A stretch of 64,000 bases of DNA. Origin: Alphaproteobacteria bacterium (lineage in GTDB: Bacteria; Pseudomonadota; Alphaproteobacteria; MPNO01). The position numbers and the translations under genes were made by a program. Where the stretch lies: assembly GCA_964291675.2 (NCBI GenBank), contig OZ219865.1, forward strand, positions 896,001 through 960,000. Reading direction: 5' to 3'. The notes under the pieces were generated by a model that did not search any database, was not told where the DNA came from, and was given only the letters and a program-made list of their open reading frames with translations. This document shows, piece by piece, positions 4,552 through 9,434 of the stretch; positions within the stretch are counted from its first letter, which is position 1; each line of letters starts with the position of its first letter.

Positions 4552-6571
4552 CACCAGCGCACAATGCCCCACGAAACTGCCTGAAGCGATCGGCCAATGG
4601 CCGAAAGCTCTGCTTACGGCCATGGCAGCCCTCTGGCGCGGGGACGGCGGCGGGTCACCCGAAGGGCCGTAGCGGAGCGAAGGAGCCGCGAAGCGGCTTG
4701 AAGCGCCGACGGCCTCGCGACACTCCCCGCCCGGCCTTCCTGCAAACGGCAGACGATCCCCATCGAATAACGCGAAATCCGCACCATCAAACAACGTGCG
4801 CGCGCTCACCGGTCCCGTCCTCGACCCGGGTATGGCTGGCCTGCGGGGTGACCGACATGCGCAAGGGGTTCCCGGGGCTTGCGGCGCAGGCGGAGCGGGT
4901 GTTGAAGGCGGATCCGCATTGCGGCCATCTCTTCATCTACCGGGGCCGTCGGGGCGACCTGATCAAGATGATCTGGTGGGACGGCCAGGGAGCGTGCCTG
5001 TTCTCGAAGCGTCTTGAGCGCGGCCGTTTCGTGTGGCCGTCGGCGTCGGAGGGCAAGGTTTCGGTGACGCCGGCGCAGCTGTCGATGCTGTTGGAGGGGA
5101 TCGACTGGCGGGCGCCGGTTCGCACCTGGCGGCCTTTGGCGGCGGGATGATTCATCGTTTATATACAATAGGTTGACTCCTATCCGGGCTTCCCTTTGGC
5201 GGCCTTTTCCTGTAGGCTGCGGTCATGCTCGAAGAGGCGCATTCCCTGCCTGACGACATCGCCGCACTGAAGGCGATGGTGCTGTCCTCGCGGGCCGAGG
5301 TGGCGGCGCGGGACGCCGAGTTGCGCAACCGTGACCTTCTGATCGAGAAGCTCAAGCACCAGCTTGCGGGTCTGCGCCGCCAGCGCTTCGGCGCCACTTC
5401 GGAGGCCCTCGATCAGCTTGAGCTCGGGCTGGAGGACGAGGAGATCGCGCGCTCGGCCGAGACGTTTGCCGAGCCAGCCCCGGCGGCAAAGAGACAGCCC
5501 AAGCGCCGTCCCTTGCCGGACCACCTGCCGCGCGAGGAGACGCATCTCGCGCCTTCAGGCGATCGCTGCGCGGACTGCGGCGGTCGCCTCAAGCGTCTCG
5601 GCGAGGATGTGACCGAGGAGCTGGAGTACATCCCCGGCCGCTTCGTGGTGAAGCGCATCGTGCGCCCGCGCCTGGCCTGCGGCGGCTGTGAGACGTTCCA
5701 CCAAGCGCCGCTGCCGTCGCGGCCGATCGAGCGCGGCCGTCCGGGCCCGGGCCTTCTGGCGCATGTGCTGGTCTCGAAGTACTGCGATCACCTGCCGCTC
5801 TACCGTCAGTCGCGTATCTTCGCCCGCGATGGCGTCGATCTCGACCGCTCGACGCTGGCCGGCTGGGTGGGCAAGGCGACGGCGCTGCTGGAGCCCCTGG
5901 CCGATGCCGTCGGGCGCCATGTTCTGGGCGGCCAAGCCCTGTTCGCCGACGACACCCCGGTCAAGTTGCTGGCGCCGGGGACCGGCAAGACGGCGACGGG
6001 TCGGGCCTGGACCTATGTCCGCGACGAGCGTCCGTGGAAGGGCGAGGCATCGCCGGCGGCGTGGTATCGCTTCTCGGCCGACCGCAAGGCGGCGCATCCG
6101 AAGAGCCATCTCGCGGGCTACGCCGGCTGGATGCACTCGGACGGCTATGCCGGCTTCGGCGCACTGGCGCGCGCGGGGCCGGTCCGCGAGGTCGCCTGCC
6201 TGGCCCATGTGCGGCGCAAGTTCTTCGACGTCCACGCCGCTCAGGGCTCGGCGGTCGCCGCCGAGGCGCTGGAACGGATCGCCGCGCTCTACGCCATCGA
6301 GAAGGAGGTCCGCGGGCAGCCCCCAGAGCGCCGCGTCGCGATCCGCCGCGCCAAGGCCGCGCCGCACCTCGATGAGTTCGAGCGCTGGCTGCAAACGCAA
6401 CTGCCGAAGCTCTCCGCCAAGACCCCGCTGGCGGCGGCGATCCGCCATGCGCTGACCCGGCTGAAGCGCCTGCGGCCCTATATCGAGCACGGCTTCCTCG
6501 AGATCGACAACAACCCGGCCGAGCGCGCGATGCGCCCGATCGCGACGATGGAGTCATTCTGCACCCCTTCT

Positions 6572-8644
6572 TCAAGTGTCTGAAAACATTGACATCTGAT
6601 CCCGACATGAAGCGCGACGCGGGTCTTTCCGCAGTGCCAGGGCGTTGGCGACCCGCTCGGAATGGAGGTCTTTGGCCCTGATTTGCCAGGGCGCTCCGGG
6701 AACGAGTTGCGTGGCAGGTAGCGTTCCATCCTCGATCAGGCGCCTGAGGGTATGGCTGGTCGTGCCCAACTCTTTCGCCGCCTCGGTCATGGTGCGCCAG
6801 TCGCCCTGCTTGTCCGCTGAGAGGTAGCCGTCGATCCCGTTCACACGCCGGATCGATCCGACCCGGTGAGCGGTCCAACTCTTGTGCTGCCCGGTCCGCA
6901 TACCCATCCGGTTGAGCGACGCGGCGATATGTTCGTCCGACCATCGCCCGGCCATGCTGCGTATCACTGCCAGAGCTTCCTCGGGCGTTCGGCAGCCATG
7001 TTCGCCGCTCTTGGGCTTGCGGACCCTGAGACGGGAATGACGGCCACCCATCCAGTGGATCGTCAGCAGGACGTCACGCGCCTCTTCGTCGACATCGACG
7101 ATTATGCCCATGATCAGGGTGCGCACGAGACGCTGGCGGGCGCGCATGCTCACCCCGGGCGCGTTCCAGGCGGCCTTCAGGTCGTCGGCAAGTCCGGCCA
7201 GGTCGGGGACAGTGGGCCGCGGCGACGGCATCGCGCCCAGCCTTGCTTCGCACGCCTGGACGCGTCGAAGCGCTGCCTCCCAACTCTTCTCCAGCTCGGC
7301 GGCGATCAGCCGGTTGTCCGGATCGCAGGCGGCGTAGCGCCGCTCGGCGAGCGCCGCCTCGTAGCGGGCTTGCTGCAGATCCAGCTCGGCCACCCGTTGC
7401 TGTTCGGAAAGACCCTCCGCGTTCATCCGCTCGGCTTCCAACGAGGCTTCCACCGCCATGGGCTCCACGACGCGGAGGATCTCATCGGCAACGGCCGCAT
7501 CCACACGCGCACCCCCGAACCCCAGACAGGGCTCTAGCTCGAGCTGGAGGTGTCGCCGATTGCAGCGGTAGACAGGATTGCCGGGCGTGCGACCGGAATA
7601 GGCAACGCTCATCGTGCGTCCGCAGCGTGCGCAACTGAGGAGGCCGCCAAGAAGCGCCCGCCCGCCGCGCCCCGACTTCGTGCCCCCCGCCTTGCCGAAG
7701 GCATTGGCGGCGAGCTGCGCCTGGTTGCGCTCGAACTCCGGCCAGTCGATGTAGCCCTCGTGATGGTCCTTCAGCACGACCTCCCATTCCGCCATCGGCT
7801 TGCGGTGTCCATAGCTCTTGCGCACGCGCCCGTCGACGATCTCGGTCCGCCGCTCGCTTTTGCCGTAAGCGTAGACCCCGGCGTAGAAAGGGTTCTTCAA
7901 CACCGAAATTACGTTGCGATAGCGGATCGGCGTCCAGTCGAAGGAGACCATTGTCCTGCCATCCGACGGGCGTGGGAAGCAAAGCTTCTGCCCGCTCAGC
8001 GCCAGCAACACCTGCCGCGCGCTGCCAAGCTCGCGAAACCGGGCGAATACCTGACGGATCGCTTCCTGAACCCGAATGTCGGGGTCCAGCCCCAGCCCGG
8101 CCTCGGGATGCCAGACGTAGCCGATCGGGACGCTGATGCGAAGCTCGCCGCGGGCGGCCTTGGAGCGGGCGGCCTCGAACATCCGAGCGCGCAGAACGCC
8201 GAGTTCGAACTCGCTGATCTGGCCCTTCATGCCGAGCAGCAGACGATCGTTGGGGTGGCGAGGATCGTAGATGCCATCCTGGTCGATGACGCGTGCCTCG
8301 ACGAGACCGCAGAGCTCGAGAAGATGGTGCCAGTCCCGGCCGTTGCGAGAGACCCGCGAAGCCTCGAAACAAAGCACGGCTCCAACGTCCCCGGCGCACA
8401 GCCAGGCGACGAGGCGCTCGAAACCGGGCCGCGCAACGGCACCGTCCGCCGACAGGCCCTGATCGTCGTCGATGACTTCGACCCGGGCAAAGCCGTGCCC
8501 GCGCGCCACATCGACGAGATCGTATTGGCGGCGCTGGCTCTCCAGATTGTTCCGCATCTGCTGGGGCGTGGACTGACGGACATAGACCACGGCCTTGCGC
8601 GTCAACACCGATCGCGGCAACGCTTCAGCGACGCCCATCGTCAT
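6572..8644 (-). CDS. Large serine recombinase with Zn ribbon, coiled coil and C-terminal excisionase-like HTH
   Basis: YVRQS catalytic motif, EASRVSRN, LKNPFYAG, CARCG; C-terminal TMTEAAKELGTTSHTLRRLIEDG. Confidence 0.92.
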   Translation of the reverse strand: MTMGVAEALPRSVLTRKAVVYVRQSTPQQMRNNLESQRRQYDLVDVARGHGFARVEVIDDDQGLSADGAVARPGFERLVAWLCAGDVGAVLCFEASRVSRNGRDWHHLLELCGLVEARVIDQDGIYDPRHPNDRLLLGMKGQISEFELGVLRARMFEAARSKAARGELRISVPIGYVWHPEAGLGLDPDIRVQEAIRQVFARFRELGSARQVLLALSGQKLCFPRPSDGRTMVSFDWTPIRYRNVISVLKNPFYAGVYAYGKSERRTEIVDGRVRKSYGHRKPMAEWEVVLKDHHEGYIDWPEFERNQAQLAANAFGKAGGTKSGRGGRALLGGLLSCARCGRTMSVAYSGRTPGNPVYRCNRRHLQLELEPCLGFGGARVDAAVADEILRVVEPMAVEASLEAERMNAEGLSEQQRVAELDLQQARYEAALAERRYAACDPDNRLIAAELEKSWEAALRRVQACEARLGAMPSPRPTVPDLAGLADDLKAAWNAPGVSMRARQRLVRTLIMGIIVDVDEEARDVLLTIHWMGGRHSRLRVRKPKSGEHGCRTPEEALAVIRSMAGRWSDEHIAASLNRMGMRTGQHKSWTAHRVGSIRRVNGIDGYLSADKQGDWRTMTEAAKELGTTSHTLRRLIEDGTLPATQLVPGAPWQIRAKDLHSERVANALALRKDPRRASCRDQMSMFSDT

Positions 8645-8810
8645 CCTCCTTCACCGGGGCGGTCGCCGCTTCCAGAAGCAACCCGGCCACTGCGCTCACC
8701 ACCGCGTCTCGTTCCTCCGAGCTCAGACCGCGCAGCGTCGGTGCGTCGAGCGGCATGCCGAGCTGTCGGGGTTCTCTCGGCGGTCGCGCTGTTACAGGCA
8801 AAGACTTCAT
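8625..8810 (-). CDS. Small (61 aa) hypothetical protein upstream of the recombinase
   Basis: GAGGAG RBS then ATG at 8810 (MKSLPV...VAGLLLEAA...EDDDGRR); overlaps the recombinase start. Confidence 0.6.
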   Translation of the reverse strand: MKSLPVTARPPREPRQLGMPLDAPTLRGLSSEERDAVVSAVAGLLLEAATAPVKEDDDGRR

Positions 8811-9120
8811 CGCGCTCCTCTCCGCTAACGGTTCCGTCATCGGGGGAGCTATGTCGAAAACCTTGGCCGACGAGAAGCTCGTGAAGTGCGGCGAGGGCGG
8901 CCGGGGAGGCACGCGGCGCGCCGATCTCCATGCCGGCGCATGACGCAGGATCAAGCATCCAGGCGGGTATCTTGATGATCAGCCCCGGCTCTACCTCGAC
9001 GGAGGCCATGAGGCCGTCTGCACGCTGTTCGATAACTTCAGGGCGTACTCGCCGACCGAACAGTGCGTGCCAGCGGTAGTGGATGACGCAATCCTGCCCG
9101 ATATGGGCAGAATGAATGCG
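8641..9120 (-). CDS. Element-end ORF (DUF5372/Y4bD-like), open to the att site and lacking its natural start when integrated
   Basis: Frame open from 9120: RIHSAHIGQDCVIHYRWHALFG...IPAWMLD; stop overlaps the recombinase ATG. Confidence 0.6.
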   Translation of the reverse strand, partial: RIHSAHIGQDCVIHYRWHALFGRRVRPEVIEQRADGLMASVEVEPGLIIKIPAWMLDPASCAGMEIGAPRASPAALAALHELLVGQGFRHSSPDDGTVSGEERDEVFACNSATAERTPTARHAARRTDAARSELGGTRRGGERSGRVASGSGDRPGEGG

Positions 9121-9434
9121 CGATCGCCTTGGGCCGGAAGAACTATCTCTTCATGGGCTCAGCCAGCGGCGGCCGGGCCGCCGCCATCGCCTACACCTTG
9201 ATCGAGACCGCAAGGCTCAACCACGTCGACCCGCAGGCTTGGCTTGCCCAGGTTCTCGAGCGCATCCCCGACTACAAGATCAACCGCGTCGAAGAACTGC
9301 TGCCCTGGAACTGAACGCCGACCGCAGATCAGGGCCAAATCGCCTGAACGCCCAGGGCGGCTCCGCCCAACGCTTACGTTTCGAACAACGCGGCGGCACC
9401 ACATCGCTGTTCGCCCCAATGGAGGAAGCAAGTC

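Follow-up and report, generated by a model that had tools for sequence, protein, structure and literature searches.

From where does a conserved reading frame that opens at the very edge of a mobile element, and has no start codon of its own there, take its start? The question is raised by a locus in a 64,000-nucleotide (nt) stretch of an Alphaproteobacteria bacterium genome (GenBank assembly GCA_964291675.2, contig OZ219865.1, positions 896,001 to 960,000 of the forward strand), hereafter the window. Judging from its sequence, the locus is a 2584-bp site-specific element centred on a large serine recombinase (LSR), and its target is a GC dinucleotide in the conserved ...RPIA|LGRK... codons of an insertion sequence (IS) gene, the IS66-family tnpC. 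The comparisons described here give good support to the conclusion that the frame at the element edge, orf1, exists as a complete gene only when the two ends of the element are joined, with the qualification that some flanks supply an ATG. The best overall explanation, and in our judgement probably the right one, is that orf1 is split by integration, is assembled in the joined form, and encodes a product that acts on the LSR. An earlier note, made from the letters of this DNA, had already proposed a ribosome-binding site and ATG at one end of the element and a headless coding body at the other, in frame across the joined attachment site (attP).

The integrated element and its target gene are laid out as follows, in window coordinates.

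5225..6543, plus strand: 5' part of the IS66-family tnpC (Pfam), ending ...AERAMRPIA at the GC core
6542..6543, strand not applicable: attL crossover core GC, from comparison of two copies in different IS66
6544..6571, minus strand: outward start within the P' att arm (11 nt, ATG at 6557-6555, 6-nt spacer, and a purine-rich Shine-Dalgarno (SD) tract, AGAAGGGG, at 6571-6564)
6572..8644, minus strand: LSR of 690 amino acids with a C-terminal HTH_17/excisionase-like domain (Pfam, alignment, model)
8641..9125, minus strand: orf1 body, headless when integrated, encoding a DUF5372-like SH3-type barrel and helix (about the first 100 amino acids) and an unconserved tail
9094..9125, strand not applicable: P att arm, conserved at the DNA level in all three codon positions of HSAHIG
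9126..9127, strand not applicable: attR crossover core GC, from the same comparison
9128..9314, plus strand: 3' part of the IS66-family tnpC, LGRKNYLF... through the stop, from reading the sequence

The interrupted gene was assigned by Pfam (DDE_Tnp_IS66, E 2.8e-89, together with zf-IS66 and LZ_Tnp_IS66). The element comprises positions 6544-9125 plus one GC core, and its genes (orf1, a small frame named orf2, and the 690-amino-acid LSR) are all on the minus strand. Empty-site contigs in three runs (X1, X2 and X4) join 6536 to 9121 and skip exactly 2584 bases, the length of the predicted circle; thus, uninterrupted target sites exist. The source genome (G000) holds three copies of the element. 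Besides the one in the window there is an identical copy on another contig and a 98% identical one (C2:3465939-3468712) that interrupts another IS66 transposase at the equivalent codons (...ERALRGIA|LGRKSWLF). When the junctions of this last copy are set against those of the window, the shared core shrinks from CGATCGC, the core assumed in the earlier note, to GC, and the joined product is unchanged. The LSR-side core is GC in 35 of the 44 relatives with both ends readable. GC is its own reverse complement, and insertions in the opposite orientation within IS66, seen for loci L027, L028 and L045, are in line with that. Short, imperfect inverted arms (GGGCA[CG]AATGA) surround the 2-bp core at both junctions. 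A perfect palindrome, CTGCCC-GATAT-GGGCAG, also lies at 9094-9110, within the att arm and the first orf1 codons, and brings GGGCAG to a third copy, beyond the pair in the mirrored arms; an accessory protein might bind there, or the orf1 mRNA might form a hairpin at its start.

On the minus strand, the frame that ends at 8641 is open to and past the element edge, with an in-frame TGA 13 codons upstream in the flank, and its conserved body starts 13 nt from that edge. For comparison, 80 loci were fetched out of 414 relatives, and in all of them the element edge reads GC, 11 nt, then CAT TCT GCC CAT RTC GGG. Among 66 distinct sequences, orf1 codons 0-5 do not vary at any of the three positions, a sign of constraint at the DNA level (the att arm). 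From codon 6 to codon 33 the amino acids are kept and the third positions vary; Y12, R13, W14, H15, G19, R20 and R30 are invariant or nearly so, each with 2-4 synonymous codons. This codon pattern argues that orf1 is translated, from codon 6 on. The lack of a start codon, and the inspected annotation, which lists either no gene or a 'hypothetical' one, would fit an integrated orf1 that is a decaying remnant without present function. That explanation is already contradicted by the strong synonymous-versus-nonsynonymous pattern and by a frame free of stops over 156-170 codons in each of 46 loci; the 2130 protein clusters reached by an orf1 profile search at E<=0.001 and the confident predicted fold also speak against it, and we regard it as very improbable.

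How complete, then, is orf1 in the integrated state? We surveyed 64 distinct integrated junctions for which the flank was long enough. No in-element ATG precedes codon 10, and hence the invariant YRWH motif, in any of them; 23 lack ATG, GTG and TTG altogether, and in 12 the flank offers only GTG/TTG or a distant ATG. Several junctions (about nine; loci L018, L040, L050, L054, L059, L069, L080, L082, L087 and the L088 region) have an in-frame stop 5-6 codons upstream of the body. Counting from the His codon at 9114-9112, the first in-frame ATG of the window body, at 9009, is codon 35. The earlier note had named translation from this ATG in the integrated state as one outcome that would speak against a split gene. 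The ATG is not conserved, the first downstream start falls anywhere from codon 6 to codon 48 among relatives, and a protein begun at 9009 would be without the invariant YRWH and without half of the modelled barrel.

A translation start is present at the other edge of the element. The LSR stop (6574-6572) is followed on the minus strand by AGAAGGGG (6571-6564) and then by ATG (6557-6555), so that in the integrated state the SD tract, the ATG and the first four and two-thirds codons of orf1 lie at the far edge, just past the LSR stop. These positions, and the frame end at 8641, proved exact on re-reading, and a scripted join of 6557..6544 to 9127..8641 gave a 501-nt open reading frame of 166 amino acids, the same product as had been predicted. 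We then compared the far ends of relatives. Fifty loci have the LSR, and 44 of these have both ends readable; L018, L021, L027 and L080 were dropped for truncated or unmatched ends, and L040 and L073 for a different LSR end. In relatives the LSR stop is followed by a stretch rich in purines (GAAGAGGGG, frequently AAGGAGGT), then by a gap of 4-6 nt, an ATG and, 11 nt further on, the core. This ATG is kept by 43 of the 44 (L037, the exception, has ATA), and an SD-like tract is found in 44 of 44 by a loose rule, as AAGGAGGT in several. Joined in silico, a check that the earlier note had suggested, the homologues keep the frame open in all 44, and the arrangement first proposed for the window is kept among relatives.

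The frames are also coupled at both of their contacts. The orf1 TGA overlaps the LSR ATG in the window (ATGA, 8644-8641), and 41 of 46 loci have such a stop-start overlap (with an LSR start of ATG in 29 and GTG in 12). At the other contact, the LSR stop overlaps the far-end ATG as ATGA in L044, L056, L062, L065, L066, L072, L074, L078 and L081, and nearly does so in L083, where the ATG lies 2 nt past the stop, giving 10 loci with an overlap or near-overlap. In the joined form, where orf1 ends across the LSR start and the LSR ends on or right next to the orf1 start, the coupled frames make up a closed loop. Only 14 of its 2584 bases are non-coding (about 99.5% coding), which bears out the expectation of a circle almost wholly coding on one strand. 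One further gene lies within this loop.

8625..8810, minus strand: orf2, about 61 amino acids (possibly from 8840), a separate frame within the orf1 tail that overlaps the LSR start

Conservation at the protein level is seen for the orf2 frame in 63 of 80 loci, versus 10 of 80 for the orf1 tail frame (E<1e-3), and the orf1 tail was rejected as a conserved protein in favour of orf2. It is present in 13 of 13 loci inspected. A Sinorhizobium meliloti plasmid record lists a 59-amino-acid hypothetical protein between orf1 and the recombinase, matching the place of orf2, and lists no gene for orf1.

The enzyme of the element has Pfam matches to Resolvase (PF00239, 2e-20, residues 18-167), Recombinase (PF07508, 1e-17), Zn_ribbon_recom (PF13408, 2.5e-07) and HTH_17 (5.5e-06). 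In an alignment of 38 sequences the mean column identity is 76% and the nucleophile S25 (in YVRQS) is invariant. A structural model (mean pLDDT, the predicted local distance difference test, 64.5) places the zinc-ribbon strands at residues 336-377 and a coiled coil at 381-439/445-470, before later strands. The resolvase catalytic domain, a first DNA-binding domain (DBD1), a zinc-ribbon second domain (DBD2) and an inserted coiled coil are all in place, and this is the architecture of a large serine recombinase. As to its integration and excision activity, the evidence is indirect and consists of the three copies in G000, the empty-site contigs and the sequences of junction form described below. 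Residues 618-661 (window about 6662-6793, minus strand) form an excisionase-type HTH_17 (TIGR01764, 4.5e-07) that is kept in all 38 aligned relatives; such a C-terminal domain is unusual among LSRs.

What kind of protein would the assembled gene encode? The Orf1 model, built from a 29-sequence alignment, shows an SH3-like barrel at residues 11-60 (pLDDT >90), a helix at 76-88 and disorder at 100-150. A Foldseek search of the model against the PDB gave no match at E<=0.001, and in the VIA wide fold search (best Z 6.9) SH3-like barrels of the KOW, Tudor, PsaE and NdhS types were tied. The modelled fold is a common one, and we draw no functional inference from fold matches. Neither Pfam nor NCBIfam has an orf1 family. 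Weak Raffinose_syn matches in 31 of 38 members (best 1.6e-05, below the cut-off) were taken as spurious. By language-model features, the 30 nearest Atlas clusters to Orf1 are all DUF5372, the best at 0.93 (220 of 256 features). Like DUF5372 proteins (PF17342), Orf1 has an H-x-x-x-H-P-L-x-G motif region (HYRWHPLYG in Orf1, THPFHPLHG in DUF5372), a similar size and a gene directly upstream of an LSR; unlike orf1, the canonical members seen have their own start and lie away from the element edge. Bona fide DUF5372 genes stand upstream of other LSRs in the source genome and in relatives.

A complex model of LSR residues 170-690 with Orf1 scored an ipSAE of 0.75, against 0.01 for the best control. 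The 0.75 mark is reached by 58 of 80 solved complexes and by 2 of 110 mismatched pairs, counts that hold roughly here because custom alignments were used. Contact agreement between runs was at least 72% and the partner pLDDT at least 71. The predicted contacts involve LSR residues 337-343, 388-405 and 476-538 and Orf1 residues 15-18 (the YRWH motif) and 62-89; on the LSR these map to the zinc ribbon, the DBD2-proximal part of helix 381-439 and the strands past the coiled coil, and the coiled-coil tip (440-444) is untouched. Directionality factors, according to the excerpted text of one study, bind the junction of DBD2 and the coiled coil of large serine integrases (PMC12286644). Leaving aside which reaction it favours, Orf1 is on this model a likely partner of the LSR, placed where directionality factors bind.

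The mechanism that we propose is as follows. Full-length Orf1 would be made only, or mainly, from the joined form, in which case its presence would report the recombination state. Orf1 would be a distant DUF5372-like small barrel protein that binds the LSR at the junction of zinc ribbon (DBD2) and coiled coil, and, after the element has left its site, would change the direction in which the LSR reacts or how efficiently it does so; integration would split orf1 and so turn the factor off. In the version that we prefer, orf2 and the LSR would drive rare excision, and Orf1 made from the circle, with coupled LSR translation, would favour quick re-insertion into another IS66. The earlier note had suggested that the circle-specific protein might promote re-integration, targeting or circle maintenance. 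The predicted binding at the directionality-factor site fits a switch and says nothing on its direction.

Several observations, gathered in this paragraph and the two that follow, weigh against this proposal. The far-end ATG sits in the att inverted repeat, as the earlier note had recognised; it is part of the mirrored arm GGGCA[CG]AATGA, to which the recombinase binds. Because the att site is a quasi-palindrome (ATG, 11 nt, GC, 11 nt, CAT), its symmetry dictates both the ATG and the frame, and frame agreement is not independent evidence; the conservation of both could be a by-product of the att site. The open leader was rejected as evidence as well, since control frame 2 also has stops in 0 of 44 relatives and frame 1 stops trivially at ATGA. 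Orf1 might then be made in the integrated state, through an ATG in the flank, an in-element GTG or TTG, or a non-canonical start, and the start at the far end would be a coincidence of site geometry. An in-frame ATG does come from the flank in 19 of the 64 junctions. In 10 of these 19, among them the third copy in the source genome, it stands at codon -10 and is the antisense of the IS66 K-S-W codons (AAG TCA TGG), and as a result many database gene calls start M-T/I-F/C-G-P; His at residue 11, the offset given by the flank ATG, is the commonest position, found in 17 of 150 listed profile matches, so that the commonest full-length gene call uses a flank ATG. In 10 of 64 junctions an in-element GTG or TTG is the only start before codon 10. 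Yet 23 junctions have no ATG, GTG or TTG, several have a near upstream stop, and the motif is nonetheless under purifying selection; the flank varies between insertions, which also occur in the opposite orientation; the purine-rich SD tract is not mirrored at the other end; and a subfamily shows the ATGA overlap with the LSR stop. We consider such a coincidence rather unlikely. The weight of the split-gene proposal rests on the unmirrored SD tract, the ATGA overlap in a subfamily, and a selected coding region that otherwise has no start, all read from sequence. Of the support first offered for it, frame agreement falls away, being fixed by geometry, and the SD tract and the headless body stand.

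Does the joined form exist? A junction-pattern scan of metagenomes gave 20 matches, of which one contig, L090, has the predicted junction, in the order LSR C-terminus, GAAGGGG, ATG, 11 nt, GC, 11 nt, orf1, LSR start; the remaining 19 were chance. N-termini of the junction type, with His at residue 10, occur in five database proteins (P0022, P0072, P0086, P0103 and P0163) and closely match the joined leaders computed from the separate ends of related loci. The contigs behind them are 660-2712 nt long. These sequences, from a single metagenome contig and from five proteins in databases, indicate that the joined form exists. In L090, there are only about 143 nt of LSR before the junction and an IS transposase upstream, so that this junction appears to lie in stably replicated DNA; L090 was rejected as a clean circle junction. 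The junction is absent from the 80 genome loci and from G000, and no circle ('go back') joint was found in contigs of X1, X2 and X4 (DNA) or X19 (an RNA library), a search of contigs only that says nothing on rare circles. The X19 contigs of a 95-99% identical relative hold parts of the LSR and one junction, and show neither strand nor transcription. In viral contigs, neither of two junction matches was real (both were chance). The replicated DNA around L090, with its IS-disrupted LSR, and the lack of a circle joint in the four runs would suit a different explanation, in which the complete gene matters in stable joined forms, such as head-to-tail arrays or copies captured by a replicon, and split copies are dead ends served in trans. 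No junction, however, was seen in the 80 loci or in either G000 contig; the P0022 contig has, at 2712 nt, nearly one unit length; and near-identical multi-copy integrations (100% and 98% in G000) argue that split copies are mobile. We regard this explanation as quite unlikely. As to the claim that the gene exists only after excision, the absence of an in-element start holds (0 of 64 with ATG), and it is limited by the 19 flanks that supply an in-frame ATG and by the L090 junction in replicated DNA.

The remaining points that count against a split factor gene concern expression and partnership. A scan of 6400-9300 found no consensus sigma-70 promoter and no intrinsic terminator (0 each). HMMER found no DUF5372 (PF17342) match for P0001 at E<=0.1, nor for the 38 members at E<=10, and the complex score is a model confidence, not a measurement. 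A canonical directionality factor made only after excision would hinder re-integration.

How does this arrangement compare with known systems? Lyras and Rood are said to have described, in 2000, a joint promoter for tnpX in Tn4451 and Tn4453; Tn4451 is also moved by a large serine recombinase. Promoters assembled across the circle joint are described, in the excerpted text, for ICEclc (Pcirc) and ICEKp1 (P3'end) (PMC13023037). As far as these accounts go, such joint promoters (Tn4451/Tn4453, ICEclc, ICEKp1) resemble our element in that the joining of ends creates an expression signal specific to the circle; they are transcriptional and lie upstream of an intact int or tnpX, whereas the element would assemble a coding sequence and a translation start. 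Another parallel is with the SSV-type 'suicidal' tyrosine integrases of archaeal viruses and plasmids, in which attP lies inside the integrase gene and the gene is intact only in the excised or episomal state, as the excerpted source has it (PMC7253208). There too an element's own recombination site lies within one of its reading frames and integration splits the gene. Those systems are archaeal and the split gene is the tyrosine recombinase itself (PMC7253208, same excerpt), whereas here the serine recombinase is intact, the split gene encodes a small accessory protein, and only the SD tract, the ATG and about five codons are separated. In common with directionality factors of large serine integrases, Orf1 is a small protein from a gene beside the LSR, with a predicted binding place at the DBD2-coiled-coil junction, the criterion of the virtual pulldown in the part of the study excerpted (PMC12286644); in contrast, its sequence is unrelated to known factors, its modelled fold is an SH3-like DUF5372-related barrel, and its synthesis is predicted to be gated by recombination state. 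The gin element of Bacillus cereus is another small, non-prophage element; a serine recombinase moves it, and it leaves the gene that it interrupts by precise excision, again from excerpted text (PMC5595907). In that case, excision restores a host sporulation gene, and the excerpt reports no split element gene (PMC5595907). Thus, attP-split genes of the SSV type and circle-joint promoters are known already. What appears to be new, from the sequences at hand, is that the split gene is that of an accessory protein of a bacterial serine recombinase and that a translation start and frame are assembled. A literature search that excluded supplements and subscription journals found no published description of the element, of its IS66 target preference or of DUF5372.

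Other DUF5372 genes beside LSRs were met outside the window. The source genome has a second LSR (C1:1134483-1137900, with an identical copy at C2:3650978-3654259) of about 65% nucleotide identity over a stretch; upstream of it lie a genuine DUF5372 gene (67.5 bits), which has an ATG of its own, and a 162-amino-acid frame starting MARRPADAKTRSLKEH. Genome G005 carries on its contig C2 five identical 3263-bp elements (L126:1975-5237 and L127-L130), each with DUF5372 and an LSR, at unrelated insertion places, three of them in codons that we take to resemble an IS21 IstB motif (...VF|PD...). In this G005 element an ATG lies 4 nt past the LSR stop, in frame with the DUF5372 frame across a TT core. 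We keep a split gene in that family as a lead only: an in-element GTG lies just before Pfam position 1, and the TT core fits 3 of the 5 copies. In a 4.7-kb family of genome G250 and in the second element of the source genome, a split gene was rejected, as DUF5372 lies away from the edge.

The insertion sites themselves gave further observations. Window positions 6301-9400, which hold the element together with its flanking IS66 sequence, match C2:1235256-1238332 of the source genome with 100% identity for at least 3077 bases. Either the segment is truly duplicated or the assembly is redundant here; the genome is listed with 6.67% contamination. Partial, diverged copies of the orf1 region with an IS66 tail lie at C2:2698-3381 and C2:3252668-3252849 (80% and 90% identity), and one has a stop in the orf1 frame. 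At L022, L072 and L076 the LGRK-side half of the IS66 tnpC is found on both flanks, in inverted orientation, the pattern expected from an inversion between oppositely oriented copies. At L025, L030, L041, L046 and L058 the orf1-side flank is unlike IS66 tnpC and the core is not always GC; these may be secondary target sites.

How widespread is the gene? The 414 relatives were found in one-genome-per-species contigs, mostly of Alpha- and Betaproteobacteria. In addition, 55 database proteins and 167 plasmid records match, the latter mainly rhizobial and with orf1 either hypothetical or without a listed gene (the annotation table being incomplete). Many matching contigs are about 2.6 kb long and start and end at the GC core. 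We put forward, with somewhat less confidence than not, a wider conjecture: that DUF5372-like barrels are widespread, unrecognised LSR partners or directionality factors, and that in the IS66-targeting family the factor gene has come to be gated by recombination state. The loop (orf1 to LSR to orf1) would then make factor and enzyme together and integration would cut it, a self-limiting switch built into the att site.

If the split-gene proposal is true, the element would show, on a very small scale, a gene that exists or not according to DNA topology, and its recombination site would double as the first codons of a regulator of the same recombination. It would also explain how a 2.6-kb element too small to hold regulatory DNA keeps its integrated state apart from its excised one. 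As nested mobile DNA, it uses a conserved codon block of another mobile element, the IS66 tnpC, as its landing pad. LSRs are used in genome engineering, where running the reaction in reverse calls for a cognate factor; a new, easily recognised family of candidate cofactors, next to compact LSRs whose sites have defined 2-bp cores, would be of interest in practice. Finally, orf1 would be a common gene that annotation has missed, including in plasmid records of well-studied rhizobia.

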